DNA of 64,000 nt. Source: an uncultured Erysipelotrichaceae bacterium (GTDB lineage Bacteria; Bacillota_I; Bacilli_A; RFN20; CAG-826). Below, one piece after another: positions 31,925-52,098 of the stretch. The stretch lies in contig CADAIJ010000007.1 of assembly GCA_902787955.1 (NCBI GenBank), positions 128,326-192,325 on the forward strand, read 5' to 3'. The notes under the pieces were generated by a model. It was given only the letters and a program-made list of their open reading frames with translations, was not told the DNA's origin and did no database searches. The position numbers were made by a program, and so were the translations under genes. Within the stretch, counting starts at the first letter, position 1. Every line of letters starts with the position of its first letter.

Positions 31925-31939
31925 GCTTTAGCACTTTGC

Positions 31940-33068: not shown

Positions 33069-36000
33069 TTACTTAACCATGTCCTCAGAAGTTTTTTCAA
33101 TGAACAATATTTCTTCATCGCTTAAACCGTACTTGCTATAAAGTTGCTTATCAATTTCAGAAACTGATTTATCCCATTGAATTTCTGAGTTATTAGAAAA
33201 ATCTAGTAATGGAATGTTTGCCCAAGTATCTTTAGGATTGTTTTGCGTAACTTTGAGTGTTCCCAGCATAAATCTTAAAAACTTTGTGTAAATATATTTT
33301 TCAAAATTTTTAGCTTCGATTTCAGTATTAAAATTACCAATGCTCATAAATGTTTGGGTATGACATTCATTTGGCTTAGCAACAATTGGCTTACTTAATT
33401 GTTCACCTAATTTTCCACTTCCATTTGCACCTGTTATAAAAACTTTATAATGATTTAAATTATCGTTTTCCCTAACATATTTATTCGCAATAAATTTCCA
33501 TGTACGTTGATTATTTTGTCTGCCACAAACTCTAATATCATCTTTATTTACTTGAGATTCAGAAAATACTTTTGGCATTTTTTCAAAAATACTAGCATCA
33601 ACTATTAGTTCGTTTCCTTTTGTAAACGTTCCGATATACTCAGGAAAATCTTTATAAATAATACTCTCAAGATTATATGTACTTTTTGGAAATGCTATAG
33701 AGTCAATAAAAACATCTGTTTTTTTTCTAACCTTTTCAATAATATTCTTAGTAATAGGATTTTCAGTGAAATGAACAATCGGGCCTATTTTTCTACTTTT
33801 ATCCATCAATGTTACCGCAACACCGCCTTTTATTTCGGCTGTAGGGAAAACAACACGTGAATCACTAAAGTAATCAATTACAGAAAAATGCTCATCATTC
33901 AACATTTTGATATTCCATTCTGCAGGAGTTTGTCCGGCATTGAATAAAAATCTTGCAGGGCTAATTAATGTAACTAAGTTTGAAATCGAAAATGAAGCCT
34001 GATAGAAATAATGATAAATAGGATTTTTTCTGTTATTATTTATTTCTTCTTGATATGGTGGATTGCCTACTATTGCATTGAATTTCATTTGCCCATGACC
34101 TCCTAAATTCCAGAATGATGGTTTTAATACTTTTTGTATAAATTGTGCTTGCTTATCTTTTAATTGCATTACTAAATCATCAAAAGAATGCATATTTGTT
34201 TTTCCATTTCTATAGCCAAGCAATGTTCTTTTAGTAATAAGTTTTGCCATTGGCGTTTTACAAATAACGAACACTTGATTCTTAACGACGTTATCCCAAT
34301 ATTCAACTTTCTTTTCAAAACTTATATCGTCTAAATTCTTAATCGCTTCTCTATATAAGGAATAAGTTACATATAGTGGATATAAACCTGTTTTTGAATT
34401 GATTTCAAGTATTTTTGCTTCTTTAGTAAACACTTTATTTGTAACATCAATTTGGTCAACAAATCTTGGTTCTTCTATCATGTTGTTATGAGATTCATCA
34501 AAGAAATCATAGCCACCAATAGTGTCTGACATATGCATATTCACAACACGCCATGGTGTCAAAACTGTTTCTTTATCAGGATTCTTAAATGTTGCAAATA
34601 ATGATGCAATTTTCTTTACTCTTTCAGTAGGTTCTAGTTCATCAGCTGTTTTAGCAATGTATCTTATTCTTCTACTTGCAGCTACAAAAATGTCTTTATC
34701 ATAATACTTAGAAAATTTTTTAAATGTTGCTTTATCTACGCCAGCAGGCATAAATTCATTCCAAGATGTATCATCAACTAAATCAGCAAAATTATCAATT
34801 GTGACATCTGCTTCAATATCGATATTCATACCATAAACTAGAAGAGGCATTCTAATAGAAATAGCTCTTAAAATAGATATAGCTGAATCGCGATTCTTTT
34901 TCTTTTCTTTTAATTCAGCAAGACGTTTCTTTTCTTCTTCAGTTAATTCTTGCTTTTTCTTTTTCTCTTTTAGTTTCTTTTCTTCTTCGGTTTCTTCCTC
35001 ATCAAAGCCTTCTTTATTAATATCAATATCTCCAGCTTTTTTAGTTTGCTTAGAAGCACCAACTATCTTTTTTAAGTTTTCGAATTCTTTTAATTCAACT
35101 TCAGTTAATTTTAGTAGCTCATCATTATAGATTTTAGGATCATCAAAGCCATTTCTAGCGACTCTTTCAGCATAAGCTTTCTTCAACTCTTGCAGCAACT
35201 CAGCAACTTGATATTCTTTCATATTAGAATCTTCAATTGCTATAACAGGGCAATAATTCAAGAACTTGGAAAGAGATAATTCAGCAACACTATTGTTTGC
35301 TCCTGCTCTTGCTGAAAGCTGTACCGATTCAGCTACCATCTTTAATGTACGATCTGGAGCAAAATCAAATACAAAGCATTCTGCCTTTATCTTGCCATTG
35401 ATATTTGCAGGAGATTGAACTCTAAAAATTGTTTGAAGATATTGGCTAGCTGCAGTCGAGTATGTGCCAGCAAGCATTAAAACTGCTGTCCATTCAGGAA
35501 CAGTAACTCCAGTAGTTAATCTTCCACAAGATAAAGTAATAGTTCTAGTATCTTCTGGGTGGTCTGTCATTTTTTCTTTTAACGCTTTTAAAGCATCAGA
35601 AGTATCAATTTCTTCTCCACCATCACCAGCAACATTAACAACAGCAAATTCTTTTAATATATGATGATTCTTTATTAGTTTTTCCAAAGCTTTAGCTTCT
35701 TTAACGCCAGGAACTACCCATAAAGAATGCCTAAAGTAATCTCTATATTCATCGGTTGAATAAGGATAATTTGTATCATCACTTTTTTTACATATTAAAT
35801 CTAAAAAGGCTTTTACATCTTGTTCATGAACAAAATCACCAGCTTTTACTCCGTTAGGTACTTTCTTGCCATCTTTTTCAATATCACCTGTCCAAATTCT
35901 AAAGAATTCTCTAAAGTTAAATGCCTTATCCATTACATCGATATATACTGGAAGACTCTTCTCAAGATGATAAGTAAATATATTCATTTTTGGAAGTTCC

Positions 36001-37082
36001 TCATACGGGTTAGAATCACCAAAATGGTTTTGGTCCCATAATGTTTTGGCTTCTTGTTCCATAATATAATCCCATGTATAAATGGATTCCTGTTCAAAAT
36101 CAGTTAGCAAGTTAAATGGTGTTCCTGATAATTCTAGAACGTGTGTTTTATATTCATCATTAGGTTTAATAACTGCTTCTAATACATTTTTACCAAGTTG
36201 TGTTTGAGTTCCTTCGTGTGCTTCATCGACAACAACAAAGTCCCAGTTTGTCTTAAACACATCATCATTCTTATCAAAGTTCCCACCAACAGCATCACTA
36301 CCACGTAAATCTTGCATAGAAGCAAAATAAACAAAAGAAAGTCCAGCTTTTTCTAGTTCTTTGATGGATTTATGGCCATCTTTTTTAGAGCCAAATGCAT
36401 AATTTGGTTTATCGTAAAAAATTTTACCAAAATCCTCGAACCAGCCATCACTTACTACTGGTCTATGAGTAATAATTATTGTTCTCTTAAATTCCATCTC
36501 TTTAGCCACTTCTAAAGCAGTTAAAGTTTTTCCAAAACGCATCTTAGCATTCCAAAGCATTCTATTATCCGTCTTGTATCTGAAAATGGTCTTTTTAATG
36601 GCTTCTTTTTGTTCTGGCCTAAATATAATAGGATTTTTATTACTCGTCATTTGTGATGAATTTAATGCAGTGTTTCCAGCCTTTACAGCTGCAATAGCAT
36701 TCTTTGCTGTATTTAAATCACATTCAAACCACTCATTTGGCTTTTTATTGAATTCAAATGTTTTCTTTTTTATACCAGAGCGGATTAAAACTTCATGTAC
36801 TTTATAGTCTCTAAATGCTTTAACTTTTCCATCTTTATTGTAGACAGCAATTTCAGTATGAATTAAATCATAATTAATTGCAGCGGTTGCTGTATATGAG
36901 TCTATTCTTTTTCTGGCTGCATAATTTAAATCATGGCAATTTGGAGCAAAGCTAGAATAAGGCTTATCAGTATGAATTGTAGCATCACCAATCTTTAAGC
37001 ACCCTGCGTGTTGCTTATCATTAATTCTAAATATATAAATAAGTTTATATTCAAATGTTGAATTGAATTTTATTGAACACAT
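33069..37082 (-). CDS. single-polypeptide restriction-modification-like enzyme: T5orf172/GIY-YIG-like domain + SF2 (res-subunit-type) helicase + coiled-coil linker + gamma-class N6-adenine methyltransferase + C-terminal target-recognition-like region
   Basis: N-terminus YKLIYIFR...LKIGDAT...EWFECDL fits the T5orf172 pattern. Walker A GKT and DEAH-box FVVVDEAHEG. A charged coiled coil EEETEEEKKLKEKKKKQ. MTase motif I-like KILEINSKTGLY and motif IV AIVGNPPYQ. Confidence 0.7.
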   Translation of the reverse strand: MCSIKFNSTFEYKLIYIFRINDKQHAGCLKIGDATIHTDKPYSSFAPNCHDLNYAARKRIDSYTATAAINYDLIHTEIAVYNKDGKVKAFRDYKVHEVLIRSGIKKKTFEFNKKPNEWFECDLNTAKNAIAAVKAGNTALNSSQMTSNKNPIIFRPEQKEAIKKTIFRYKTDNRMLWNAKMRFGKTLTALEVAKEMEFKRTIIITHRPVVSDGWFEDFGKIFYDKPNYAFGSKKDGHKSIKELEKAGLSFVYFASMQDLRGSDAVGGNFDKNDDVFKTNWDFVVVDEAHEGTQTQLGKNVLEAVIKPNDEYKTHVLELSGTPFNLLTDFEQESIYTWDYIMEQEAKTLWDQNHFGDSNPYEELPKMNIFTYHLEKSLPVYIDVMDKAFNFREFFRIWTGDIEKDGKKVPNGVKAGDFVHEQDVKAFLDLICKKSDDTNYPYSTDEYRDYFRHSLWVVPGVKEAKALEKLIKNHHILKEFAVVNVAGDGGEEIDTSDALKALKEKMTDHPEDTRTITLSCGRLTTGVTVPEWTAVLMLAGTYSTAASQYLQTIFRVQSPANINGKIKAECFVFDFAPDRTLKMVAESVQLSARAGANNSVAELSLSKFLNYCPVIAIEDSNMKEYQVAELLQELKKAYAERVARNGFDDPKIYNDELLKLTEVELKEFENLKKIVGASKQTKKAGDIDINKEGFDEEETEEEKKLKEKKKKQELTEEEKKRLAELKEKKKNRDSAISILRAISIRMPLLVYGMNIDIEADVTIDNFADLVDDTSWNEFMPAGVDKATFKKFSKYYDKDIFVAASRRIRYIAKTADELEPTERVKKIASLFATFKNPDKETVLTPWRVVNMHMSDTIGGYDFFDESHNNMIEEPRFVDQIDVTNKVFTKEAKILEINSKTGLYPLYVTYSLYREAIKNLDDISFEKKVEYWDNVVKNQVFVICKTPMAKLITKRTLLGYRNGKTNMHSFDDLVMQLKDKQAQFIQKVLKPSFWNLGGHGQMKFNAIVGNPPYQEEINNNRKNPIYHYFYQASFSISNLVTLISPARFLFNAGQTPAEWNIKMLNDEHFSVIDYFSDSRVVFPTAEIKGGVAVTLMDKSRKIGPIVHFTENPITKNIIEKVRKKTDVFIDSIAFPKSTYNLESIIYKDFPEYIGTFTKGNELIVDASIFEKMPKVFSESQVNKDDIRVCGRQNNQRTWKFIANKYVRENDNLNHYKVFITGANGSGKLGEQLSKPIVAKPNECHTQTFMSIGNFNTEIEAKNFEKYIYTKFLRFMLGTLKVTQNNPKDTWANIPLLDFSNNSEIQWDKSVSEIDKQLYSKYGLSDEEILFIEKTSEDMVK

Positions 37083-38059
37083 AAGGTATACCCCCTAGCT
37101 AGTAAATCTACATATCTTACTTTTTTATTCTTTTCCCAATCCATTATCTTTGCATATATGCCGTTATGCTGATATACATCGCCTTTAGCACAACCTATGC
37201 ATCCATTTTCTTGTACATCTTCTTCGCCAAACAAGTTTATTTGAACTATTCTTTCTACTTGACAAGATTCAGGTATAACGCATTTAATTCCATCCATTTG
37301 CCATAAATTCCAAGAAATAATAGTTGCAACTTCAATCATTAAATCTTGAGATGGAAGCTCATTTAATTTTGCATAGTAATACTCAAAATAACTAAATAGG
37401 ACATTTTCTCGTGCAAGTAATAAATTATCTCCTTGCCATTCATAACCATATGTTGCTTTTAAGGCTTCTAAAGAATATTTTACCCAGTCCTCTTTATTAT
37501 TAGTATTCTCATTAACGACTCTTAACTTTCTATCTAAAAGACCTACTCTATCCTTTAAATCAATTCTATTACCAGTAACAGTATCATAACGACTAACAAT
37601 ATAAGGGGCTTCACCACATGTTATTTCCATTCTTATATCTTTAACATAGTCTATCCACGTTTTGCCTTCTGGATACTCAATTTTAGATTCAGTAGATTTC
37701 CATGTATTATTATCTAGCTCCTCATTGAAGACACCTGTTTTATTAAACCATGCATTATCAATTAAATTGTTTTGTTTATTACACATCCAAGATGGTGTAA
37801 ATACTTCAGCATTATCTTTAGATCTCTTTGATTGTTCGGTTTTTGATTTTTGGCTTCTGGGTTTAATGAAATTCTTTTCACCAATAATAAAAGGTGACAT
37901 GTTTTCTTTAAATCTATATCCTTTTCTTTTATATGAGTCAGTAGCCCAAATAATATTTTTTCTAGTTGTATTATCTATCAAAAGTAAATCCAGAATCTTT
38001 GGATAATTTTCTAATAGGTATTTTTCATTGATGTCAATTGAATCCAAAAATTCCATCAT
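37070..38059 (-). CDS. hypothetical protein co-transcribed with the helicase-MTase (contains an EVFTP-type motif-X-like string but no NPPY)
   Basis: 329 aa; AEVFTPSWMCNKQNNLID; overlaps both the upstream HTH gene and the downstream giant gene. Confidence 0.4.
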   Translation of the reverse strand: MMEFLDSIDINEKYLLENYPKILDLLLIDNTTRKNIIWATDSYKRKGYRFKENMSPFIIGEKNFIKPRSQKSKTEQSKRSKDNAEVFTPSWMCNKQNNLIDNAWFNKTGVFNEELDNNTWKSTESKIEYPEGKTWIDYVKDIRMEITCGEAPYIVSRYDTVTGNRIDLKDRVGLLDRKLRVVNENTNNKEDWVKYSLEALKATYGYEWQGDNLLLARENVLFSYFEYYYAKLNELPSQDLMIEVATIISWNLWQMDGIKCVIPESCQVERIVQINLFGEEDVQENGCIGCAKGDVYQHNGIYAKIMDWEKNKKVRYVDLLARGYTLCVQ

Positions 38060-38250
38060 TATTCCTCCACTTCAATTTTATATTTTTCTAAATAAGGCAT
38101 TAACATTCTTTTAATTTTCATAGTTGGTTCATGCGTTCCCGCTTCCCATCTATTAACAGTACCGAAAGTCACACCAAAAAGTGCTCCAAATTCAGTCTGA
38201 GTTAAACACATTTTTAATCTAACTTTTTTTATAGCTTCATTATATTTCAT
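38059..38250 (-). CDS. XRE-family HTH protein (controller-like)
   Basis: LTQTEFGALFGVTFGTVNRWEAG is an HTH_3 motif; first gene of the operon; a TATAAT lies about 30 nt upstream. Confidence 0.6.
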   Translation of the reverse strand: MKYNEAIKKVRLKMCLTQTEFGALFGVTFGTVNRWEAGTHEPTMKIKRMLMPYLEKYKIEVEE

Positions 38251-38558
38251 TGTTAAAAAGCCTCATTTCATAAATATGTTAATATTATATCATCTTTTAA
38301 TCATTTTTGCTATTGTTAAGAGTTAATTTCTTCCTTAATATCTTTTTATTACTTCAAGTACTGGTCCAAACATAACTGGATCTAATGCATCGCAAAGCCA
38401 AGTTTATGTAATTCTTTTATCATATTTTCATTCATAAAGTTAAAACCATATGCATACCATTTGGGTCACCTCAATTTTAAATAATTGTGAACAGCGAATT
38501 TTGGCAGATACTATAAAAATGAATCTATAGATAATATTTCTATTATAAATACACAAGT

Positions 38559-38658
38559 TGCGCACATTTCTTATCCTCATACCTATACAAATAATGCCCC
38601 TATAATTAAGTACAGCATTGGAGCCCAGTGTAGTCGCCTTGCTGATGGCTAGGGCTTG
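38559..38658. repeat. copy 1 of the ~100-nt cassette-boundary repeat
   Basis: About 85% identical to 45422..45523. Differences are compensatory within predicted hairpins: GCC/GGC versus CACC/GGTG, and GCCC/GGGC versus CCCAG/CTGGG. Confidence 0.65.
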
Positions 38659-38713
38659 TGAAAATATTAAGAGGATATGCAACCAATCAAATTATCAGTG
38701 ACTGATTGGATTT

Positions 38714-40027
38714 TTATATATCGCGGTAACCTAGCATCCAATTTATCCAACTTCGAATTGTTGAAGCTCTCCTTTTAAATGTGGAATCTGATAATTTTAA
38801 TGTATCTTTTTTATCTAAAAGCATCATCTCAATATCATCTGTGGTTGACTTAGTAATACTCTTTTCTCTCAAATCATTGTAAATTTTATTAAAAATGTCT
38901 TTCGAAATTAGTCTGTTAAATATCTCTTTTTCAATTTCTTCTTTATTACCTATTACCTTCAATGCGGAATCAGTAAACTTTTTTTCATGAGTGAGAAAAC
39001 CCAAATATACCAATGCCGAAAGGTAATAAGAGATTTGCCTTTCCGTATTTAAATCTAGAATTTTTAAAGCGTAGTCTTTATCATCTAAAACTCTTTGCCC
39101 CGCAATTAACATATTTACAATCTTAGTAATGTCATTTGCTTGAGGAAGAGTATTGTTAAAACCAAGAATTATAACTTCTTTTCCGCTTTTTCTTTCATTT
39201 CCATTAGAGTTAATACTGCGCAAAGTGGAAAACTTTTCTGCATAGTAGAAAATTTGGTATTTAGAATCTTTAGAAAATAACTCTATTACTTTTTCTGTCG
39301 CATTATTACTAAGAACTAATGCAGCGCCATTATCAATTGCTCTATCGCAAACAATTTTTAATTTTTCAAAATCACTAAATGTAAATCCAGCTAATTGATA
39401 TTTTGTAAAACCATCATCATCCTCATAATCATATGGTGGATCAACATAAATTATGTCGCCTGCTTTTGCCATATTTATTGCAGCCTCATAGGAACCAGAT
39501 AGAATTTTTATCGTATCCTTATTCTCAAATAAATATTTATGTATTTCTCTTAAGTTCGAACTATCACAGATTGTTGGATTTCGATATCTTCCGATTGGCG
39601 TGTTGAATTGCCCTTTATTATTAACTCGGTATAAGCCGTTGTAGCATGTTTTGTTAAGGAAAATCATGCGTGCAGCTCTTTCGACTGGTGAGTATGCTTG
39701 CGGCCAATCTTCTCTTCTATCCCACGCTCTTACTTCATAATAAAAATCGTCAGGATCTTGCCTGTATTTAGTATCAAATTCTTGAAGCTTAATAATTAAT
39801 TCTTCAATCTTATTGGACTGGATTACTTTATACGCATTTATTAAATCTTCGTTTAAATCGTTGATTATCGCCTTAGTGGGTTTGCGATCAAAAAACACTG
39901 CGCCGCCACCTAAAAAAGGTTCGATATAAGTAAAATCTTGAGAACCATCTGCTATTTCATCGATGTATCCATTGATTTTATCTAATATTTGCCTTTTTCC
40001 ACCGGCCCATTTAACAAAAGGTTTCAT
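38714..40027 (-). CDS. Dam-family (D12 class) N6-adenine DNA methyltransferase with a C-terminal extension of about 150 aa
   Basis: FVKWAGGKRQIL N-terminal signature, FLGGGAVFF SAM motif, and VDPPYD catalytic motif. Confidence 0.8.
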   Translation of the reverse strand: MKPFVKWAGGKRQILDKINGYIDEIADGSQDFTYIEPFLGGGAVFFDRKPTKAIINDLNEDLINAYKVIQSNKIEELIIKLQEFDTKYRQDPDDFYYEVRAWDRREDWPQAYSPVERAARMIFLNKTCYNGLYRVNNKGQFNTPIGRYRNPTICDSSNLREIHKYLFENKDTIKILSGSYEAAINMAKAGDIIYVDPPYDYEDDDGFTKYQLAGFTFSDFEKLKIVCDRAIDNGAALVLSNNATEKVIELFSKDSKYQIFYYAEKFSTLRSINSNGNERKSGKEVIILGFNNTLPQANDITKIVNMLIAGQRVLDDKDYALKILDLNTERQISYYLSALVYLGFLTHEKKFTDSALKVIGNKEEIEKEIFNRLISKDIFNKIYNDLREKSITKSTTDDIEMMLLDKKDTLKLSDSTFKRRASTIRSWINWMLGYRDI

Positions 40028-40034
40028 TTATTAT

Positions 40035-40775
40035 TTATTCACTAGTTAATTTCTTTAATTGATTGTATACCATTTCTGCTAAATCTTCTTCACTTATCGC
40101 GTCTAACAATCTTACGCTGCCTAAATAAGAAATGTATTTTGCTATTTCTGCATATAAATCATTATTTTCATTGTTTGGGTTTTCATCGTAAAACCTTTTT
40201 TCTCCGCGTAAGGCACCTCTCACTAAATGTTCTTCAGAAGAGAATGAACGCCATGTTAGGTTTCTAAATCTCAATGGATTCTCAACAACCCATTTTGATA
40301 ATTCATACTTATCGGGTTTTGATTCATCAACAGTAAGTGCTATACGGAAATAACATCGAGATAAAACCCCAAACATGAGTCCTCTTCTAACACCTGTTGT
40401 GTGAAGCCACATATTTTTAATTGTTGTTGAACTATTAATCTTCATAAGGTTTTTGGTAACTAAATAGAATTTATCTAAATGCAACCAAAGCCAGAATCTT
40501 ACATCGGTTAAAATGTGTCGTGGAAGTTGATTTAAGTGTTCATATAACCTTTTAGAGTTTTCGAAATCGATTTCTTTATCTTTTCCTTCAGGGTTATCAA
40601 TTAATTCAAAATCTTCAATTGCGATTTTCTTTTCAACAAACATTGGTTGAGGAAAAGTATCTTTCATCCAAGCATTATCATCATTTGAGATAATTAAATT
40701 AGTCAAAGATTCAACGTTATGAACAAAATATTCATAAGCATCATTTGATAAAAGTTTAATATGAATAAACGCCAT
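40035..40775 (-). CDS. hypothetical protein (cassette member)
   Basis: 246 aa; directly follows the next ORF upstream with a 2-nt gap. Confidence 0.4.
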   Translation of the reverse strand: MAFIHIKLLSNDAYEYFVHNVESLTNLIISNDDNAWMKDTFPQPMFVEKKIAIEDFELIDNPEGKDKEIDFENSKRLYEHLNQLPRHILTDVRFWLWLHLDKFYLVTKNLMKINSSTTIKNMWLHTTGVRRGLMFGVLSRCYFRIALTVDESKPDKYELSKWVVENPLRFRNLTWRSFSSEEHLVRGALRGEKRFYDENPNNENNDLYAEIAKYISYLGSVRLLDAISEEDLAEMVYNQLKKLTSE

Positions 40776-40777
40776 AA

Positions 40778-41683
40778 TTATTCCTCCTCAGGTTGTGCTG
40801 TTTTCGATTGAAGCGATAATTTTTCAAGACTAGAACCAAAAGGTTTTTTCAAAAGCTGTTGTGCGAAAGAACACGCAGAAGTCTTCTTAAATGTATCAAC
40901 TTCTAAATCGGTTCCAAATAATCTTTTGTATGATGACAAAACCGATCTAAACCAAATATGTTTATTACAAATATCATCGAAATCTACGTCATCATCTTGA
41001 ATTTCACTTTTACAAATTGAGAAGCCTTCAGTTAACGCTGGAATAAGCAAAGAATTAAAGAACATTTCTTGATAAGCAGGAATTGCATAAATGATTTTAT
41101 AATTATCAAAATCTTTCTTTGCCATCGTAATAACAATCTTCTTAGAAGAATCGCAATCAACAGAAAACATTCCATCTTCTAGTTTTTCATCGCAAATAAT
41201 GGAGAATATAGATGAGACAACATTGTTTTCTTTTTCTTCGTGACGGGCATGCATGTTAAACCCATCATAAACTGCGACTATATCATATTTTTCAATGCTG
41301 AATTTATAGTCTAAGTAATCATCATCAAACTCGTCAGATGAGAGTATAAAATCTTCTGTTGCATAAGCAAATAATGAGCAATCCAATCTTTCATTAAAAT
41401 CAGATTTATATAAAGTTAATTTTTGAGGTTGCTGAGTAATGACAAATTTTTTTCTAAATACGGTATACGAACATTCAATAATTAATAAGATTTCAATTTT
41501 CTTTTCATCATAAAGCTTTTGGATTGTTTTGCTGTTCGTCACGAAACAAATGTTATCAAAAACAAATCTGTCATCATATTCAATAAAATCGTAGCTAAGA
41601 TCAAAGGTTAAATCTTTGTAATTAGATAATCCTAAATTTTTATTAATAACAGGATACGGAAACAGCTTATTTCTGACTTGCAT
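40778..41683 (-). CDS. hypothetical protein (cassette member)
   Basis: 301 aa, acidic; overlaps the GHKL gene by 17 nt, implying translational coupling. Confidence 0.4.
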   Translation of the reverse strand: MQVRNKLFPYPVINKNLGLSNYKDLTFDLSYDFIEYDDRFVFDNICFVTNSKTIQKLYDEKKIEILLIIECSYTVFRKKFVITQQPQKLTLYKSDFNERLDCSLFAYATEDFILSSDEFDDDYLDYKFSIEKYDIVAVYDGFNMHARHEEKENNVVSSIFSIICDEKLEDGMFSVDCDSSKKIVITMAKKDFDNYKIIYAIPAYQEMFFNSLLIPALTEGFSICKSEIQDDDVDFDDICNKHIWFRSVLSSYKRLFGTDLEVDTFKKTSACSFAQQLLKKPFGSSLEKLSLQSKTAQPEEE

Positions 41684-43610
41684 ATGTTATTTTAACCTCG
41701 CTTCCAAAATTTTCGTGAATATTTGTAACTAATTGAATTAAGACTTTTTGTCCTTCTTTTATCGAAAAAGGCCCAGCTTCAATTTGTGTTGAGCAATCAA
41801 CATTAATTCCATTCACTTTCATTTCTATAATCTCAATTTGCTCGCCACCATTTACATCATCAAGTCTTAAAAGTGATAAGTAACATTCTTCTTTAGAAGT
41901 TGGGGCATTAAAGACAACGTTAAATCTGCCTTCTTTTGGGTTTACACCAATAAACTTATAATTTACTCCGGCGAGCTTTGTTCGAACGAAAATGACGCTA
42001 TCCCCATCTTTTTTTCCACCTTTTTCAGTGCCAGGATGAGGGTCACCACCAGTTTTTTCATTCCTACCACCAGGATATTCAACTTCATTGCCTTCATCAT
42101 CAATGCCACCAATTTGTGGTTCAAGTCCATTGTCAAAATCGCTCTTATAGTTTGCGTTCTTGCTAGATGTTGAATTTTCTTTTCTTTTTGACATTGTAAC
42201 TTCATCAGCTGGTTTTGGTTTTTCATTATTCTTCTGTCCGCTATCACCTGCAGCTTCATCTGGCAAATATTCACCGGCCCCATTTGGATCGATCGGATCA
42301 TCATTGTCTAGTTGAAGACATTCAATAATTTTCTCATTAATCTTTATTTTAATTTCATTAATTAATCCAACGATTTCTTTTTTATATGCTTTATCTTCAA
42401 TTCTATTTGTTTCCCAATCATCATGTTTTGGGTTTTCTATATTGCGTAGGGCTTTTCCTAAATCTTCGCCTTCAATAATACAAAGTGCAGAAGCATCATA
42501 TGAATTCGACATATTAAAGTTTTTAATCTTCATATATGGTTTTCTAATCATTGTGATTTGATGTGTTGCCAAATCAGAATTATCTTTGCCAAGTTTTAAT
42601 ATATATAAACTGCAATTGCCATATTCTGTATCGATATCGAAAACGCTAACATCTTCTCCACCTTTTAAAATTAAATATTGAGATACTATTTCATTTTTTA
42701 ACTTAGCATCAATGAGTTCTTCGTCAAAAACTAAACTATCAAGTGTTTCTTTTGAAATAATAATATCTTGATATTTTACAACTATATGACCGTAGAAAAT
42801 CGATGCCATGAATGACTCAAGCACGCTATTAACAACTTCTTTTTTAGTATCTGCAGAATCAGAGTAACCGATAATAAAAATATCGGTTCCACATTCATCG
42901 TTTCGATTCAATGCACTCTCATCAAGCATCAATAAATTATCGCAAGGTTCATGCAATTCATTAGAACAATAATATCCCTTTCCTAAAGTGTAATCATTGC
43001 TTTGAGAACCAACAACTACACCGGAAGCAAAATCGGCAACGCCAATTGATCCAGAATAACTACACAGTTCACCGTTTAGCCCTTGATTTGTCTTAGTTGA
43101 ATAAAATACAACCTTAGTTGAAGACATTAAAAAGGCAGCATTTTTACCAACACCCTTAGATCCTCCTGCTAACTCACTAGGTTTTTCTGATACACCAGTA
43201 CTTTTAGCTAAAGCTAAAAATCTATTATTTTCTGATTCGTTACTTTCTATACCAACTAGACCAGTTGTATTGTAGTCGCTTACTCTTAGACATGTGATTT
43301 TTTTGCTAGATAATGACTTTAATATTTTGTCATAAACAGCAACATAGTCTTTCTTGTATGACCAAAGATCAATACAGTTTTGGGCAGCTTGGCGAAGTTC
43401 GTCAATCCCCGGAATCTTAGCTGTATCAATTTCAAATGTTTTAAATTCAACAAGGACAGGACTCTCGTCTGAAGCTCTCGCATCAATTGAGTTCTGTAAA
43501 ATTTCACGTGCAAAGCCTTTATGCGCGTTCTTTTTGAATGTTTCGGTATCAGCAGTGCTTATACCCCTTTTATCAGTGTGATTTGCTTTAGGAAATCTCC
43601 AATTATTCAT
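41667..43610 (-). CDS. GHKL/Bergerat-fold ATPase (MORC/MutL-like HATPase_c) protein
   Basis: Motif N FAREILQNSIDA, G1-like SDYNTTGLVG, G2-like GGSKGVGKNAAF. The large C-terminal region has no recognised motif. Confidence 0.65.
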   Translation of the reverse strand: MNNWRFPKANHTDKRGISTADTETFKKNAHKGFAREILQNSIDARASDESPVLVEFKTFEIDTAKIPGIDELRQAAQNCIDLWSYKKDYVAVYDKILKSLSSKKITCLRVSDYNTTGLVGIESNESENNRFLALAKSTGVSEKPSELAGGSKGVGKNAAFLMSSTKVVFYSTKTNQGLNGELCSYSGSIGVADFASGVVVGSQSNDYTLGKGYYCSNELHEPCDNLLMLDESALNRNDECGTDIFIIGYSDSADTKKEVVNSVLESFMASIFYGHIVVKYQDIIISKETLDSLVFDEELIDAKLKNEIVSQYLILKGGEDVSVFDIDTEYGNCSLYILKLGKDNSDLATHQITMIRKPYMKIKNFNMSNSYDASALCIIEGEDLGKALRNIENPKHDDWETNRIEDKAYKKEIVGLINEIKIKINEKIIECLQLDNDDPIDPNGAGEYLPDEAAGDSGQKNNEKPKPADEVTMSKRKENSTSSKNANYKSDFDNGLEPQIGGIDDEGNEVEYPGGRNEKTGGDPHPGTEKGGKKDGDSVIFVRTKLAGVNYKFIGVNPKEGRFNVVFNAPTSKEECYLSLLRLDDVNGGEQIEIIEMKVNGINVDCSTQIEAGPFSIKEGQKVLIQLVTNIHENFGSEVKITYASQK

Positions 43611-43629
43611 ACCTTTCCCCCTTTCTTAC

Positions 43630-43851
43630 CTATAACTCGAATCTTTTATTATTCTTATTGTTTTTCTTTAAAAGATATTCTTTAACTTTTTTTGTTTCTT
43701 TCTCTATTAAGCTAAACATTTTCGCAATATCATCGTCATCATATTCATAGTAAGAAGCATTGCTCAAGTTGCCTAATTGATTAATAGAAGAAACAATTTT
43801 TGAAACACGGTTTTCTGAAATCCTTTTAAAATTAGATCTTTTATTTTCCAT
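43630..43851 (-). CDS. small hypothetical protein (73 aa)
   Basis: ORF positioned between operon members. Confidence 0.3.
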   Translation of the reverse strand: MENKRSNFKRISENRVSKIVSSINQLGNLSNASYYEYDDDDIAKMFSLIEKETKKVKEYLLKKNNKNNKRFEL

Positions 43852-43937
43852 ATCAGTTTCCTCACAAAAATGTTACTATAACAAGCAATATACGTCAAAT
43901 ATTTTCGTAATATTTTTCAACTATTGTGAAAATCAAA

Positions 43938-45359
43938 TTATTTTACTAAAGTAACTTTAAAATTTAATGCACTATAAGTTGACCCACTATTTTCAACAGC
44001 ATAGTGCTCTCTTAAAAAAGAATTAATTATTCCTAGAAGAAGATATTTGTTCCAAGGGTAAACTAATGTTGGCAAAGATGAAAATCCTTTATATGTTTCA
44101 GAATCTATATTTGAAAAACTATTGATATAGAAATCTATTTCATCTTTTATCTTTTCTAAATCGCTATCAGTAATAATAAAGCTGCTCTTTCTAACAAATT
44201 TATCTTCGTTAATACTGACATAGTCATCAGCAATATCTTCAGCAAACTGCTGTATGTTTGTCAAAAATGTTATATTCAATTTCTTCGCATGCTGTTTTAG
44301 CTCGGAAAGTGTAAACGAATCTTTTGAATACGCATATTCCTTAATCATTTGTTCTTTAGAAAGGGCGGTCTCTTTTGAAAGAGAGATAAATGGTTTAGAA
44401 AAATAATAAGTTCTTCGTAACCCTAATTTAGCGATTGAGAATAAAACATTGCGGTTTGAGGATGTCCCAAGCTCTTTCATTTTGTCATAATGTAAAAGCA
44501 TCATTCTACTGTATAACTTATCAATAGAAATTGTTGTTGTTTTTAAAGAATCAAACAGGTATTGAATTTCTTTTGATAAGATTGGAATAAAATCTTCACT
44601 CAATTTGAGATCATTATTATCAAAGAATTCTTTATCAGCAAAGTAACTGTCTAAATAATTGAGACATTTTTCAATAGCACCAGCACTTTTTGGTGATGTT
44701 ATATATTTTGTCTGTGCATATTCAATCGTTTTTGTTTTGTAATTAAAAAAAGCAAATTCATCTTCAAACAAGAAAAAATCAGTAAACCCTGGCGAAATTT
44801 CATGCAATAATCCGTTAATAGTTTCAAAGTTATTAATAATATGGTTTGCTTTAAAAACATCGAGGCCAATACTTTTTAATGCTTTTTTAAATCCTTTTAC
44901 AGCTTCATTATGATAATATTCCTTAACTTCTTTAGGTTCACAAACGTGATGTCTTGAAATTAATAAAAGGCAAGATTTTAAATCGACATCATAAAATTCA
45001 AGTATGTTGACAAGCATCATAAATGAATGGGTGGCGGTGTGATTTAAGTTAATGTATAAATCACGATACATCCTATGATTTGAATTTTTGGTTTCACTAA
45101 AGAGTTTTTGCTTGCTCCACCACAATTCGTATGACAAAAGTTCCTCTTTGGTTTTAGGGTTTAAACTATCAAGTATTTTTAAAACATCAAAAACGAGATT
45201 TGTCCACCCTGTTGGATATAACTTAATATTGTCACATTCAAAATAAAATGGGGTTGTATCAGTTAAAACAGGAGTCTCTGTATCAAGAGCATATTCATAA
45301 TAATGATGCCCATTAATTACATGAATCTTATATTTATCTTTTAGCTCATCGAAAGTCAT
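43938..45359 (-). CDS. hypothetical protein (first gene of the GHKL/Dam cassette)
   Basis: 473 aa; a TATAAT lies immediately upstream; no motif recognised. Confidence 0.4.
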   Translation of the reverse strand: MTFDELKDKYKIHVINGHHYYEYALDTETPVLTDTTPFYFECDNIKLYPTGWTNLVFDVLKILDSLNPKTKEELLSYELWWSKQKLFSETKNSNHRMYRDLYINLNHTATHSFMMLVNILEFYDVDLKSCLLLISRHHVCEPKEVKEYYHNEAVKGFKKALKSIGLDVFKANHIINNFETINGLLHEISPGFTDFFLFEDEFAFFNYKTKTIEYAQTKYITSPKSAGAIEKCLNYLDSYFADKEFFDNNDLKLSEDFIPILSKEIQYLFDSLKTTTISIDKLYSRMMLLHYDKMKELGTSSNRNVLFSIAKLGLRRTYYFSKPFISLSKETALSKEQMIKEYAYSKDSFTLSELKQHAKKLNITFLTNIQQFAEDIADDYVSINEDKFVRKSSFIITDSDLEKIKDEIDFYINSFSNIDSETYKGFSSLPTLVYPWNKYLLLGIINSFLREHYAVENSGSTYSALNFKVTLVK

Positions 45360-45421: not shown

Positions 45422-45523
45422 ACTAAATTGAGGCGGACATTTCTTGTCCTCACACCTATATAAATAATACCCATATAATTAAGGCACAGCATTGGAACCC
45501 AGTGTAGTCACCTTGCTGGTGGC
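45422..45523. repeat. copy 2 of the cassette-boundary repeat (5' part of the GC-rich non-coding segment)
   Basis: Aligns base-for-base with 38559..38658 and carries compensatory hairpin substitutions. Confidence 0.65.
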
Positions 45524-45995
45524 TGGGGCCTAGCCTAGTATAAGGAGAAATGTGGGATACTGCATCAATCCGAAGACCAAAGTAGAAATACTTAGGTATC
45601 CGACTAAAAGAGTCGCTTAGGTTAGTGGCGCATTTCGCTTCTATATGTAAGTAGGTAATAGACCAGGCATGACAAGAGGCTCTGCAGAAATGCATCCCAC
45701 GTGCAGATAGTAGGTTTGAGACCCTATTATCTCCGTTCTCAAAGGAAGTGCTTGATTTGACGGGTGGTGACATCCTATAACTGGTCTATTATGCATCAGT
45801 AGGGGAATATCAAGTTGACCTAGTTATGAAGATCATCTTGCTGAAGCTCCCTGAAAGTTGGAGGATACTGGTTCCTCCCTAGGTATCGGTTAGTAATAAC
45901 TCTCATCGGAAGTAACGGGGTCGCTCCCTATTACTCAGCCCGATGCGTTAGTGTACGAACAACATATCGAAGTAAGAGGTGTATGACGAAGGTCG
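45422..45995. ncRNA. candidate large structured non-coding RNA (unclassified; strand unresolved)
   Basis: About 570 bp with clearly higher GC than the surroundings and no credible ORF. Many perfect hairpins, for example GGAGGAtactggtTCCTCC. An interleaved AGTAATA / CATCGG / TATTACT / CCGATG arrangement is pseudoknot-like. Confidence 0.4.
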
Positions 45996-46044
45996 CCAGT
46001 GCTATTTTTATTTAATACTTACTAGAAAAGGAGGGAGTTCCTAT

Positions 46045-47394: not shown

Positions 47395-48366
47395 TTATTT
47401 GCTGTTTTTCTTAATTAGGTTGTTTAAAGGTGGGTGTCCACTTTCTGTGAGCATTTTATTAGCCGCTACAAGATCCATATGATCGTTGAAAGCGCGCATA
47501 ATAATCTTGTCTTTGCTGATATTTGCATCAAGTTTCTCGTTTATTAATGATAGGAGTTCTTGTGTTTGACGTACATCAAGGCCTAGATTAAAGCAAATGC
47601 CTATGAGGGTATATTTCTTTGGAATCGATCCATTGAGAATATTGTTGAATCCTGTTTGACTAATAACACCTGAGAAACATTGTGCCTTACTAGCGGTCTT
47701 ATCAATCATGTATTTTTTTATTTTTAAAGATAGTTCGTTGGAATCTGGTGCTTTTCTTTGAATATCGTAAATGTTTGAGGTGTACCAGAAAAAACGTTCG
47801 TATTCTCGATCTCTGCTTTCTAGCATTTCCTTGCTTTCTTTTGTAAGGTGGCCACTGACAACATTGTAATTTTCGAAAATATCTTTGTATGTTTTAAACA
47901 TTGATTCGGTGTAAACCATTAAACCGACATTTAGTTCTTCGTGTTTTTCTAAATACTTTGTAATTGCGTTAATCGCTATCTCAATTGCATCTCTTTTAGG
48001 GTATTTATAGGCACCAGTGGATAGAAGTGGAAAAGCGATACTATCTAAATCGAAATCAGTTGCCATTTTTAAACAGGATAGATAAGAAATCATTAAGAGT
48101 CCTTCTTCGTTATGTTTACCATCAATCCACTTAGGATCTGCAACTAAGATAATTCTTTTACAAGGAAGGTTATACGCATTAACAATGATGCATTGGCCAA
48201 TATTGATTGGACTAAATTGTTTTAGTTCTCTGGCAAGTTTATCTCCACCTATTTTCGCTAGTTGTTCGCCCATTGGTCCTTCTAGTTTTAATGAAGGTTG
48301 TGTTGGCACTACAATAGCGTCGTAACGTTGCTCAAAGATATCTCCCTTAACAATACTGAACCCCAT
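47395..48366 (-). CDS. macro-domain protein (divergent MacroD-like N-terminal domain plus a C-terminal extension)
   Basis: SIVKGDIFEQRYDAIVVP...GEQLAKIGG parallels the macro-domain start VKGDIT...DAIVNAAN...GGGV. Confidence 0.5.
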   Translation of the reverse strand: MGFSIVKGDIFEQRYDAIVVPTQPSLKLEGPMGEQLAKIGGDKLARELKQFSPINIGQCIIVNAYNLPCKRIILVADPKWIDGKHNEEGLLMISYLSCLKMATDFDLDSIAFPLLSTGAYKYPKRDAIEIAINAITKYLEKHEELNVGLMVYTESMFKTYKDIFENYNVVSGHLTKESKEMLESRDREYERFFWYTSNIYDIQRKAPDSNELSLKIKKYMIDKTASKAQCFSGVISQTGFNNILNGSIPKKYTLIGICFNLGLDVRQTQELLSLINEKLDANISKDKIIMRAFNDHMDLVAANKMLTESGHPPLNNLIKKNSK

Positions 48367-48461
48367 AATAAATCCCTCCTTTATGCTATATAGCGATTTT
48401 TATGTCGACACCGCTATTATAACATTTAAGAAGGGATAAACCAAATCTACTCCTAGATTTT

Positions 48462-50081
48462 TTAAAATCTAGCATAGAGGATTTCGCGGATTTTTGTAAA
48501 ACACTCGTCTAAGATAGGCATTAGTTCTTGAATAGTAAGATTATGTTTCTTCTCCATTTCTTTTAATGAAAAATTATCTAATCTATATTCTTTTAAATAT
48601 ATAAGCTTATCTCCGAAGTATTCTTCTTCATTAGGAGTAAGACTATTAATAAATTCAATAATCTTCTTTCTATCAGAGATAACTAGTTGCCAGATGTAGG
48701 TATAAATATCATCAAAAGTAAGAGTGATATCTTGATCATATTGGTTGATGACTATGCCTTCATATCTAGGATCGTTTTTAATGACTCTAACTAAATCATT
48801 AAATGGGAATACTGCGTTAGATAGCATCTCAGATTCATCCGGAAGATAGAATGGATCAGTATAAAGCGCTAAATAGACTTTATTATCTCTTCTAATCTTT
48901 TGGATTCTAGTTATTTCTTTTCCTAATCCAGTTAAAACATCTTTCTTAGTTAAGATAGAAATATTATCGTAATCCACCTCTAAAGTAGTCATTGAACATA
49001 TAAACATATTGGAGTTCTTAAGCATATTTGCTAATTCTCCAGTCATTCTAGTGTGTTCTTTTTTACCTTTAAATTTAACTAGTTCCTCCACTAGATCATC
49101 TTGCCCTAGAGTAGCGTTACTATCATAGGAGGTTTCCATAAAGACTTCTTTAAATTCACTAAGGATAGTAACCAAATCATCATCAGGAACTTTTAGACAT
49201 AAATCATTTAGTTCTTTTATTCTTTTAACTGTTAGTATGTCTCTAAATCCATGTGGACTTTTAACAATAAGATGATTTCCAGGTTTAATAGAATCTTTAA
49301 GATAAGAAGGAATACCTTTAGCTAAATAGGTGTTTGTGCCAAAATCTCCTAGATAAATATATGGTGTTTTATGTTTCTCATGTTCATAAAAGTCTTCTTC
49401 ATATTGTTCGAAGTAATCCATTGCTTCTCCTATTTCAAAGATAAACGGGTTAATGAGATTTAATCTATCTAGATGATCTTCCTTAAGTTCTTCATAGGTA
49501 TCTAATGGGAATGGGTAGACGACTGCATCATCTTTAGTACCATCATTAAACGCGACCAATATGTTAGGATTTCCGTTTTCATCATGTTGATTAACTAAAG
49601 AAACGCAGTTGATATGGTCAACGTTTATACCTTTTTCTTCTTTAATCATCTCTGGAAATGCTATCCAAATCATTTCTAAGAGTAAAGTAACTAAACGATA
49701 ATCAAGATTATTATCATAGGAATTTATAATTGTGGATACGGTCGGGAAACATGTAGCGCCGATTATGTTGATAGAGTCTATCTCTTTAGCCCACTCTTCT
49801 CTAATTAATGGGTTTTCCACTAAAGATTCTTTATCTTCTAAGACATTTCCATAACAATCAGCGAACACCATAAACTTCTTTTCCATATCGTGATATAAGA
49901 AAGGATAATGGTGAGTAAAAGTTTTATGGCAATGTGGGCATGTTACATGAAATAATGAAGTATCTAATAGTTTTTCTTTAAGTTCAGGGTCTAAAGTGAC
50001 ATTGATACTATCATAGATAACACAAGGAATCTTCTTATTGCATTTAGGACATTTAAAACTATAAATATGGGATTTAGACAC
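48462..50081 (-). CDS. hypothetical protein with an N-terminal double CxxC zinc ribbon
   Basis: CPKCNKK...VTCPHCHKTF; 539 aa. Confidence 0.4.
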   Translation of the reverse strand: MSKSHIYSFKCPKCNKKIPCVIYDSINVTLDPELKEKLLDTSLFHVTCPHCHKTFTHHYPFLYHDMEKKFMVFADCYGNVLEDKESLVENPLIREEWAKEIDSINIIGATCFPTVSTIINSYDNNLDYRLVTLLLEMIWIAFPEMIKEEKGINVDHINCVSLVNQHDENGNPNILVAFNDGTKDDAVVYPFPLDTYEELKEDHLDRLNLINPFIFEIGEAMDYFEQYEEDFYEHEKHKTPYIYLGDFGTNTYLAKGIPSYLKDSIKPGNHLIVKSPHGFRDILTVKRIKELNDLCLKVPDDDLVTILSEFKEVFMETSYDSNATLGQDDLVEELVKFKGKKEHTRMTGELANMLKNSNMFICSMTTLEVDYDNISILTKKDVLTGLGKEITRIQKIRRDNKVYLALYTDPFYLPDESEMLSNAVFPFNDLVRVIKNDPRYEGIVINQYDQDITLTFDDIYTYIWQLVISDRKKIIEFINSLTPNEEEYFGDKLIYLKEYRLDNFSLKEMEKKHNLTIQELMPILDECFTKIREILYARF

Positions 50082-50866
50082 TAAAAACCACCATACCTTT
50101 CCTTGAATTCATTAATAACACCTCTCATCTCTAAAGGAAGAGTGTTAATAACGTCATTAACTAAACTAGCAGGAATTACTTTATAGTAGGCTTCTGCAAC
50201 CGCACAAGAAATTGCCGCGGTTGTGTCACAGTCTCCTCCAATTGAAATTGTGGTTCTTAAACAATCTTCAAAGGAAGTAGAAATAAAGAAACAATATAAG
50301 GCTTCTGGAACGGTTAGTTGACATATTTCAGGACCATGAACATATGTGCTCCTAAGTTCTTCATAATCGAAGTCTAAATCATAGAACTTGGAAGCAAAAT
50401 CCTTGAGTTGCTCTTTATTTTTTCCATTTCTAGCCATACGAATGAGTTCACTTGTAACATAAGCACCCTTCATTCCTTCTTTATGGTTATGAGTAACTTT
50501 AGTAAAGGTATCACTTAATTCCTTAACTACATTAGGATCATCGCTTACCCATCCTACTGGGGATATACGCATTGCGCTACCATTGCCGCAGGAATTATAT
50601 GGTTTTGGGTTAGCCATATACATCCAGCTTGAAAATGAACCACCATAACCGGCATTAGGATATTCTTGAGCCAATTTTTGTAAATATTTAGCCGCAGAAA
50701 CCTCGTCTTTTATTTCTGCATGAAGTAACCAATCCATACAGGCGATAGTTAAAACGGTGTCATCGGTGTATGTTGAATTTTTAGTAACTAAGGTGAATTC
50801 TTTAGTTTTAATGTTATTGAATTCGAAACGTGAACCCACTACATCTCCAATAATCGCTCCTATCAT
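50081..50866 (-). CDS. ADP-ribosylglycohydrolase (ARH/DraG family)
   Basis: MIGAIIGDVVGSRFEF and YTDDTVLTIA correspond to ARH metal-binding motifs. Confidence 0.65.
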   Translation of the reverse strand: MIGAIIGDVVGSRFEFNNIKTKEFTLVTKNSTYTDDTVLTIACMDWLLHAEIKDEVSAAKYLQKLAQEYPNAGYGGSFSSWMYMANPKPYNSCGNGSAMRISPVGWVSDDPNVVKELSDTFTKVTHNHKEGMKGAYVTSELIRMARNGKNKEQLKDFASKFYDLDFDYEELRSTYVHGPEICQLTVPEALYCFFISTSFEDCLRTTISIGGDCDTTAAISCAVAEAYYKVIPASLVNDVINTLPLEMRGVINEFKERYGGF

Positions 50867-52095
50867 TATTCATTCCCCTCCTTTTCTTTCATTTTTTGGT
50901 CCATATATTCTTTGAATTTCTCCGCAAGAGATGGACTATTTGCGGTTAATCTTTTAATTTCAAGGTTTGGAATTTGGTTAACTGCTCTACCCAAATGAGT
51001 AACAGTCTTTTTAAATTCGTCTTTGAAATTCTGGACTTTCTTAATAATGTCTTCGCACATCTTATCGACCTGGTCATAAATCTTACCCGCGTTAGAGTAA
51101 TCAGTATTGATCTTATCTACGACTGTTCTAACCGCTGTTTCAAAGTTAGCGATATCAACATTTTCTTTTTTATATCTATCGATTTCTTTTCTATAGCTTA
51201 AGGTATTTCTCGCCATTGAACGGATTAAGCCGATGATAGTGAGGAAGTATTGAGGTCTAACCACAAACATCTTTGGATAACGATGTGACACATCAACGAT
51301 ACCTTTATTATATAAAGTGCTATCGCTTTCTAAGGTAGAGACTAAAACTGCATACTCACATCCTTTGGATGTTCTATTTTTATCAAGCTTACTAAAGAAG
51401 TGTTCGTTTTTATGCTTATCTTTAGTGGTGTCTTTTTCTGTCTTCATTTCAAACATGATGGAGACAGTTTCAATACCATCGATATAGTCGCGGAAAATGA
51501 AGTCACCTTTTCCTTCTTCGTCCACTTTATTATCTTTTTCAAAGTAGGAATCTGGGTAAGCAGTCATTCTTACTTCGTTAAAAGCATCCTGACAGTATTT
51601 CTCTAAGGACTCACCTAAGTCTTTAGTGGAATCGCCCATTCTAAATTCCTTCCAAAGCTTAATCTCGTTATCTTTAGCTTCGAGTTGGAATTCGTATTGC
51701 TCTTTAAGCTTTTGGGTGGATAACACTAATTCCTTTTCATTATTAGCGATTTGGCCTTTAAGCTTAGTGATCTCTTCGTTCTTCTTAGAGATAGTCTCTT
51801 TATAAGTGTCTAAAGCAGAATTGACGGCAATTGTTGTGTCTTTTTCGGAGTTAGCTAACTTCTCTTCTAAGACTTTAATCTTGTTGTTAAGTTCCGCGTT
51901 TAAAACTTCTTGGGCCGCTTTTAGTTTATTGGCTTCGATTTCGTTTTTAGCTTTATAAACTTTTTCGAGGTCAGTTACCTTATCTTTAACTCGACGTTCG
52001 ATTTCTTCGGTTTCGATATCTTGAAGGAGAGAATTATATTCATCCTTCCCGATTTCGATAATTTCTTTACATTTAGGACATGTGATTCTTAACAT
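50866..52095 (-). CDS. coiled-coil protein with an N-terminal zinc ribbon (DUF2130-like)
   Basis: MLRITCPKCKEI..., a long coiled coil, then an alpha/beta C-terminal domain. Confidence 0.4.
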   Translation of the reverse strand: MLRITCPKCKEIIEIGKDEYNSLLQDIETEEIERRVKDKVTDLEKVYKAKNEIEANKLKAAQEVLNAELNNKIKVLEEKLANSEKDTTIAVNSALDTYKETISKKNEEITKLKGQIANNEKELVLSTQKLKEQYEFQLEAKDNEIKLWKEFRMGDSTKDLGESLEKYCQDAFNEVRMTAYPDSYFEKDNKVDEEGKGDFIFRDYIDGIETVSIMFEMKTEKDTTKDKHKNEHFFSKLDKNRTSKGCEYAVLVSTLESDSTLYNKGIVDVSHRYPKMFVVRPQYFLTIIGLIRSMARNTLSYRKEIDRYKKENVDIANFETAVRTVVDKINTDYSNAGKIYDQVDKMCEDIIKKVQNFKDEFKKTVTHLGRAVNQIPNLEIKRLTANSPSLAEKFKEYMDQKMKEKEGNE

Positions 52096-52098
52096 ATA

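Follow-up and report, generated by a model that had tools for sequence, protein, structure and literature searches.

We examined a cassette of six intact, closely packed and operon-like open reading frames (ORFs) on the minus strand at positions 38714-45359 of a 64,000-nucleotide stretch of DNA from an uncultured Erysipelotrichaceae bacterium (assembly GCA_902787955.1, contig CADAIJ010000007.1, positions 128,326 to 192,325; hereafter the window). Profile matches identify three of its genes as PDC-M33, a candidate system of the PADLOC database, and its last gene encodes a predicted Dam-family adenine methylase that carries a domain of the family DUF7226. The gene set recurs in many species, and in Metamycoplasma hominis its last gene is the methylase DAM1. 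We propose, at about even confidence, that the element is a mobile defence cassette gated by GATC methylation.

The cassette begins with a 473-amino-acid (aa) accessory protein (43938-45359), the short form of a variable large-protein slot. It is followed by a small basic protein of 73 aa (43630-43851; isoelectric point, pI, 9.5), possibly a regulator. The next gene encodes PDC-M33A (41667-43610), a 647-aa putative GHKL-type ATPase with a glycine-rich linker and a C-terminal domain. PDC-M33B (40778-41683) is an acidic protein of 301 aa (pI 4.7) with predicted tandem immunoglobulin (Ig)-like β-sandwiches, a helical domain and an acidic tail, and PDC-M33C (40035-40775) is a 246-aa protein predicted to be compact and mostly helical, with invariant Arg, Trp and Tyr residues. 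The methylase with its DUF7226 domain (38714-40027; 437 aa) closes the set. An initial annotation, made from the letters of the sequence, had placed six ORFs on this strand at these coordinates, and all of them were recovered. Its overlap of 17 nucleotides (nt) between the genes for A and B was exact, and the gaps that we measured, 2 nt between B and C and 7 nt between C and the methylase, fall within the 2-8 nt that it gave. A promoter scan returned fewer sites than shuffled sequences did and was uninformative.

Core and accessory proteins

Proteins A, B and C matched the PADLOC hidden Markov models PDC-M33A (PDLC04582), PDC-M33B and PDC-M33C from end to end, with E values of 9e-124, 3e-49 and 1e-37, respectively. 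The alignment of A covers residues 1-641 of 647 and positions 1-623 of 627 in the model, and the three genes are contiguous, on one strand and in the same order. Protein C is also the Pfam family DUF6339 (E 1.6e-35). By these profile matches the window cassette belongs to PDC-M33. The initial annotation had proposed a distinct and unrecognised module, a view that has to be given up for A, B and C, which PADLOC already lists, and for the 246-aa protein, which already has a Pfam family. Its worry that the companion proteins could be fragments of known unrelated genes can be set aside. PDC-M33 is known by name and not by function: it is a computational candidate only, without description, and a literature search found no paper mentioning PDC-M33, DUF6339 or DUF7226. 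The family of A is large, with 1545 representatives (clusters at 50% identity) at E ≤ 1e-30. The PADLOC definition omits the 73-aa gene, the variable large protein and the Dam-class methylase, all of which recur in the loci described below.

We inspected A for the motifs of GHKL ATPases. Motif I (RExxQNSxDA, residues 35-44; ExxxNxxD at 36-44) has invariant E36, N40 and D43. Motif II (SDxNTxG, residues 111-117, with D112 and G117) is one residue longer than DxGxG. Motif III (GxxGxGK, residues 150-156) has invariant G150, G153 and G155, and motif IV (GTD, residues 241-243) has invariant G241 and T242. The four motifs are collinear and invariant across 24-28 homologues, among them distant versions (only 26-31% identical) carried by a plasmid of Lactococcus and a phage of Clostridium innocuum. 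A further segment, ENPxHDxWE(x3)R at residues 392-403, is invariant as well. The motifs quoted in the initial annotation were found intact at residues 36, 112 and 149 and are invariant in 28 homologues. Searches of the Protein Data Bank (PDB) with sequence profiles of A and of its N-terminal domain returned no GHKL protein, and hhalign comparison with approximate N-termini of HtpG and MutL aligned motifs III and I at a probability below 7%. The order and type of the motifs fit a Bergerat fold, and A is plausibly a GHKL-type ATPase. The 'GHKL/MORC-like' assignment of the initial annotation holds at the level of the four collinear invariant motifs, with neither a Pfam score above threshold nor a PDB sequence match to add to them, and 'MORC-like' is a label taken from the motifs.

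The initial annotation had suggested looking for a nuclease fold in the 246-aa, 301-aa and 473-aa proteins, and for the first two the outcome was negative. The structure of B was predicted with confidence as tandem Ig-like sandwiches and a helical domain, and that of C, also with confidence, as a helical fold that has no relative among solved structures. Judged by these models, B and C are not recognisable nucleases. Profile searches of the PDB with B and C gave no meaningful match, and a Pfam scan of the cassette proteins gave no match to a nuclease family. In a divergent set of C proteins the positions that are invariant or nearly so hold Phe, Arg, Trp, Tyr, Asn, Pro and Ser, and none is acidic. 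Binding would therefore fit C better than catalysis.

The two accessory proteins are less uniform. The 73-aa protein gave a weak match to a PADLOC 'control protein' model (E 0.002) and no other family match. The 473-aa protein had no match in Pfam, PADLOC, NCBIfam or PHROGs. Its C-terminal part of about 230 residues (approximately 240-470) is all that it has in common with proteins of about 770-940 aa that occupy the same slot in other loci. These long forms carry a sigma-70 region 4, recognised by Pfam and by a PDB match to region 4 of RpoD (E 4e-13), which the window protein lacks; examples lie at 7436-9976 of locus L013 and 7179-9986 of locus L014. The NCBIfam model of MzaA touches the sigma region 4 of the long forms at E 8e-13, far below the cut-off of the model, and in a PDB profile search with the large-protein family sigma region 4 alone was matched. 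One variant has DUF3427 in place of sigma-70 region 4. These differing domains mark the slot as variable, in which it would resemble many sensor or specificity modules. Homology of the large protein to AbiRi was considered and rejected, since no plasmid match went beyond the generic sigma region 4.

Co-occurrence, the methylase and DAM1

We searched a set of GTDB-representative genomes with a profile of A and obtained 78 loci, each from a different species and most of them in Bacillota and Mollicutes of the gut and rumen; the ORFs of these loci were then searched with the window proteins. Besides A, present in all 78 loci, matches were found to B in 71, to C in 70, to the 73-aa protein in 64, to the Dam domain in 50, to the 473-aa protein in 47 and to DUF7226 in 23. 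The gene order was always the same: the 73-aa gene, the large protein where present, A, B and C, so that the 73-aa gene sits upstream of either the large protein or A. Forty-five loci were fully flanked, that is, had A, B and C with at least 2.5 kb on each side; among them the 73-aa gene was found in 39 and a directly adjacent Dam-family methylase in 34. The full arrangement was confirmed in M. hominis and in two further contigs by independent gene calls with precomputed Pfam labels. Because the gene set co-occurs so widely, well beyond what chance would give, the possibility raised in the initial annotation that it might not be found elsewhere falls away.

The adjacent methylases came in at least four arrangements or subfamilies. 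A Dam-DUF7226 fusion stands straight after C, as in the window, in 12 loci, with a spacing of -21 to +27 nt. In nine loci Dam is followed by a protein of about 430 aa with the domains DUF6996, DUF6997 and DUF7226 that resembles a restriction endonuclease (REase). A more distant Dam lies upstream in a third arrangement, and the fourth has an upstream Dam on the opposite strand. In two loci DUF7226 is an ORF of its own that follows Dam. The coupling of the fusion to the core is tight in the 12 genome loci and in L084 and L085, with A proteins 25-50% identical to that of the window.

Loci without an adjacent Dam, and more distant ones, were also found near other modification and defence genes. 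In L014, an Erysipelotrichaceae locus without an adjacent Dam, the cassette lies between an upstream type III restriction-modification (R-M) system and a downstream CBASS operon composed of a SLATT effector and a SMODS cyclase; the flanking systems are at 2715-6896 and 13561-15406. L022 and L023, likewise without an adjacent Dam, have just upstream of the cassette a methylase and type IIG pair, the same pair as in the window. A distant A-B-C set on the L. lactis plasmid pS127 has AbiG on one side and an AlwI-family system on the other; the AlwI-family enzyme and two D12 methylases are about 1.5 kb away. Another adjoins the integrase of the temperate phage NatCom_9291, together with a 73-aa gene and with a C5 methylase about 1 kb away; the 73-aa gene was also found in two IMG/VR contigs.

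The last gene of the window cassette encodes, by the criteria of the family, an alpha-class (D12) N6-adenine methylase of the Dam family. Its Dam domain spans residues 1 to about 290, scored 235 bits against TIGR00571 dam (cut-off 115; E 1e-69) and matched PF02086 at E 1e-51, with the motifs FLGGG at residue 38 and DPPY at residue 196. It is the one cassette protein with a match in PHROGs. The initial annotation had described a unique C-terminal domain of about 150 aa. The extension is real, at about 140 aa (residues ~296-437; nt 38717-39142), but it is the Pfam family DUF7226 (E 3e-15) and is present in other proteins too. DUF7226 forms the C-terminus of the REase-like protein of about 430 aa adjoining Dam in nine sister loci (for example, L013 at 5363-6646, L019 at 14552-15835 and L031 at 8310-9611). 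That protein matches a PADLOC model of type II restriction enzymes and has no PDB or NCBIfam relative. Since invariant Tyr, Arg and Trp positions are kept in the fused, stand-alone and REase-borne forms, DUF7226 is under selection. A PDB profile search with DUF7226 gave no meaningful match. A relationship of DUF7226 to the large-protein family or to C was also considered; hhalign showed none. A classical type II R-M system has a cognate REase beside its methylase. Here the DUF7226 part alone is present, fused to Dam, and a tblastn search of the window with the REase-like protein of L013 found nothing beyond that part.

Comparison with M. hominis gave the methylase a likely specificity. DAM1 of this species, a protein of 442 aa, was published as a solitary or orphan methylase with a suggested regulatory role, in a study that does not discuss the A-B-C genes upstream (PMC10305163). 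The same study detected G(m6A)TC, in which the adenine is N6-methylated, in the DNA of dam1-positive strains by Nanopore sequencing and DpnI cleavage, and obtained recombinant proof for DAM2, not for DAM1 (PMC10305163). It found dam1 in 8 of 115 isolates (7%), and in no case did dam1 share its locus with an intact DpnII-type dam2 system (PMC10305163). The published dam1 primers match exactly the 442-aa D12-DUF7226 gene of our M. hominis locus L083 (GCA_049915255.1), with an amplicon of 118 bp as published. That gene, at 11620-12948, directly follows DUF6339, B and A, and the locus holds the full set of the 73-aa gene, A, B, DUF6339 and Dam-DUF7226. The primers and the position of the gene show that DAM1 does not stand alone but closes a cassette of this kind. 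The window methylase is 56% identical to DAM1 (WP_012855752.1) over the full length, DUF7226 included, an ortholog-level similarity. This identity makes G(m6A)TC the very probable product of the window enzyme.

Proposed mechanism and alternatives

In the mechanism that we propose, the cassette would consist of the PDC-M33 core, with A as a GHKL-type ATPase, B as an Ig-like and helical adaptor and C as DUF6339, of the two accessory genes and of the GATC methylase-DUF7226. Dam-DUF7226 would mark the GATC sites of the host, and a complex of A, B and C, driven by ATP binding and hydrolysis in A, would act on unmarked incoming DNA. Alternatively at this step, the mark would keep the A-B-C complex harmless to the host. 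The outcome would be that the establishment of phages or plasmids is limited. From the genomic context and the candidacy in PADLOC we infer a role in defence, and gating by methylation is suggested by analogy with the methylase-dependent AbiR and with BREX-like systems. In Lactococcus, the three genes of AbiR depend on the methylase of the neighbouring LlaKR2I R-M system, in whose absence AbiR is toxic (PMC13064643). The effector may reside in the middle or C-terminal part of A, for example in the ENPxHDxWE segment, or in the large protein, or the cassette may act without cleavage.

Several results weigh against this proposal. No nuclease or other effector domain was recognised in the parts of the cassette that were examined, and the literature search found no experiment on the PDC-M33 family. 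A scored 17.4 bits against Pfam HATPase_c_3, below the cut-off of 25 (1/24 members). Among the fully flanked loci 11 of 45 have no adjacent Dam, and five loci of Anaeroplasmataceae are bare A-B-C; two of the bare loci that we inspected closely (L035 and L036) are situated among housekeeping genes and have no 73-aa gene. Matches in viral collections were few, 2 in 2.9 million IMG/VR contigs and 2 in 50,697 phage records. Depletion of GATC, the most depleted 4-nt palindrome in the window (120 observed versus 253 expected; ratio 0.47), was considered as a sign of GATC restriction and rejected: related loci with and without an adjacent Dam are equally depleted, and the measure is therefore uninformative. 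The missing nuclease together with the bare A-B-C loci weakens the case for gated defence, and the bare and Dam-less loci indicate that methylation is frequent in cis but not obligatory. The initial annotation needs correcting on this point, as the methylase is not a universal part of the set.

A variant of the proposal does without a nuclease. A GHKL ATPase acting like a MORC or MutL clamp, together with the Ig-like adaptor B and with DUF6339 as a new fold that reads DNA or its methylation, would load onto unmethylated incoming DNA and, without cutting it, block its replication or expression. The large protein, which has sigma-70 region 4 in most relatives, would sense phage factors directed at the host sigma factor or act as their decoy. 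We consider this variant unlikely. If it were true, M. hominis DAM1 and other 'orphan' Dam enzymes would serve immunity by marking self.

A different explanation is that the genes are independent neighbours: A-B-C and the 73-aa gene would work independently of methylation, Dam-DUF7226 would be half of a type II GATC R-M system whose DUF6996 and DUF6997 nuclease domains were deleted, and their adjacency would reflect clustering in defence islands. PADLOC indeed defines PDC-M33 as three genes, bare A-B-C loci exist, and the position, strand and subfamily of Dam vary between loci. Sister loci keep an intact Dam beside the DUF6996-DUF6997-DUF7226 protein that matches a type II REase model. Dam (~285 aa) and DUF7226 (~145 aa) add up to the length of the fusion, in keeping with an in-frame deletion, and in L019 the order C-Dam-REase occupies exactly the position of the fusion, i.e. 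the intact precursor arrangement. In M. hominis, moreover, dam1 occurs solely where the DpnII-type system at the locus has been lost (PMC10305163). Against this, drift within islands hardly explains an adjacency that is seen in 34 of 45 loci and in four Dam arrangements. The fusion has also remained within -21 to +27 nt of the core in 12 loci, and tightly coupled in L084 and L085, despite the divergence of A to 25-50% identity, and the conservation of DUF7226 in its three forms speaks for selection. We regard mere neighbourhood as doubtful, though as the main rival of the proposal.

Two further explanations are less likely. The cassette could serve a mobile island for addiction or stabilisation, and not primarily against viruses: A-B-C would be toxic to unmarked DNA and would kill segregants that lose the cassette, as in post-segregational killing by R-M systems. 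AbiR is toxic without its methylase (PMC13064643). A duplicated target, the 5' end of a ROOL RNA gene described below, borders the cassette on both sides, as with integrated islands, and the cassette has been found in plasmids and a temperate phage. The toxicity, however, would be that of AbiR by analogy and not of the PDC-M33 family itself, and bare A-B-C is tolerated without an adjacent methylase; we judge addiction decidedly unlikely, while noting that addiction and defence can hold together. A housekeeping or epigenetic role, with a MutL-like ATPase and Dam serving methyl-directed repair or GATC-based gene regulation, would agree with the resemblance of the motifs in A to those of MutL and HtpG and with the regulatory role suggested for DAM1 (PMC10305163). 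The distribution is nevertheless patchy and strain-variable, as the scarcity of dam1 among M. hominis isolates illustrates; the cassette lies in variable islands, plasmids and phage with flanking genes that differ between loci, and no MutS or MutH partner is present. Such a role is very improbable. Methylation-gated defence remains the reading that we prefer.

Genomic setting and known systems

The initial annotation had placed the cassette between two copies of a repeat, and these were confirmed as direct repeats of about 96 nt at 38560-38655 and 45433-45529. They are 88-91% identical, occur as two copies in the window and gave no chance matches in shuffled sequences. The repeats proved to belong to a ROOL RNA gene. 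A full-length ROOL gene lies on the plus strand at 45474-46014, divergent from the cassette, and its match covers the whole of the Rfam model RF03087 (positions 1-574; 186.8 bits with a gathering threshold of 99.1; E 2e-40). The right repeat, on the plus strand, overlaps the start of the Rfam match and contains the promoter and 5' end of this intact gene: about 40 nt of promoter, including TATAAT, and the first ~56 nt of ROOL. From this overlap, and from its identity to the right copy, the left repeat (plus strand) can be read as an orphan ROOL 5' end, with the TATAAT promoter and the first ~56 nt. A hairpin with a T-run at 38683-38715 (plus strand) abuts the stop codon of Dam and is a tentative terminator, with a weak fold of -9 kcal/mol (z -1.9). 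Islands that target tRNA genes insert into the gene and carry a replacement end. By analogy, the cassette (6.9 kb) seems to have inserted into ROOL at its 5' end and to have supplied a new copy of that end. No integrase that would account for the duplicated ROOL end came up in the ORF scans at 26.5-31.9, 32.3-52.7 and 54.2-56.8 kb of the window, and nhmmer found no ROOL beside the related loci. Two ORFs antisense to the ROOL fragment and gene, of 80 aa (38440-38682, minus strand) and 105 aa (45456-45773, minus strand), have no family match and are probably not genes.

The cassette sits among other defence genes: type IIG, macro-domain, ADP-ribosylglycohydrolase, NADAR and NERD genes lie around it. 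Directly downstream, at 33069-38250 on the minus strand, is a separate R-M unit that encodes a 63-aa helix-turn-helix protein, a 329-aa methylase (PADLOC MTase_II, E 3e-111; no Pfam match) and a 1337-aa type IIG enzyme with ResIII and Eco57I domains. A cluster of ADP-ribose-related or conflict genes at 47395-56021 (minus strand) and 27152-27838 (plus strand) comprises two macro-domain proteins, one of them with an FtsK-gamma domain, and ADP-ribosylglycohydrolase, NADAR, DUF2130, CpXC, CHC2 zinc-finger and NERD proteins, and has the look of a large, variable island of defence or conflict genes. Elsewhere, too, the cassette is found in a defence context: L014 has type III R-M and CBASS beside it, L084 has Mrr and type III R-M, pS127 has AbiG, and in a temperate phage it adjoins the integrase. 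The window further contains a c-di-GMP-I riboswitch (22492-22569, minus strand) and a SAM (S-box) riboswitch (31911-32006, minus strand), consistent with a low-GC (~32%) Bacillota host.

What is new here is the extended conserved gene set, the link to a methylase with the connection to DAM1, the nuclease-negative B and C, and the duplicated ROOL end. The parts list of the candidate becomes fuller, in that a 73-aa gene, a variable large protein often with sigma region 4 and a recurrent Dam-class methylase accompany the core. PDC-M33 is a large and widespread family, and the lead is concrete and testable, not a demonstrated new mechanism. The gating hypothesis can be tested directly in cultivable hosts, for instance M. 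hominis PG21 or Lactococcus lactis with its plasmids. If nuclease-free gating by methylation were confirmed, it would be a new way to tell self from non-self DNA; if gating were false, the cassette would be one more candidate beside a decayed restriction system.

Among known systems, AbiR of the L. lactis plasmid pKR223 combines a large sigma-70-like protein, an ATPase and dependence on a methylase (PMC13064643), and the long forms of our large protein also carry sigma-70 region 4. The cassette does not share the defining set of AbiR, namely Sigma70-like, ParB-like and REase/Snf2 proteins with methylase dependence. MzaABCDE (Gao et al. 2020), in which the sigma-70-like MzaA accompanies the MutL/MORC-like GHKL ATPase MzaB, is alike in concept. 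The window proteins gave no Mza match in PADLOC or NCBIfam, and MzaB to MzaE, including the nuclease MzaD, were not found in the cassette. BREX and DISARM gave no model match in the PADLOC scan of the window proteins, and PglX-type enzymes differ from the methylase of the cassette, which is a small Dam of the alpha class. In concept, however, these two systems are close: each has a methylase inside a multi-gene ATPase operon and distinguishes self from non-self by methylation without a classical REase. MADS is another methylation-based multi-gene defence system of similar concept.

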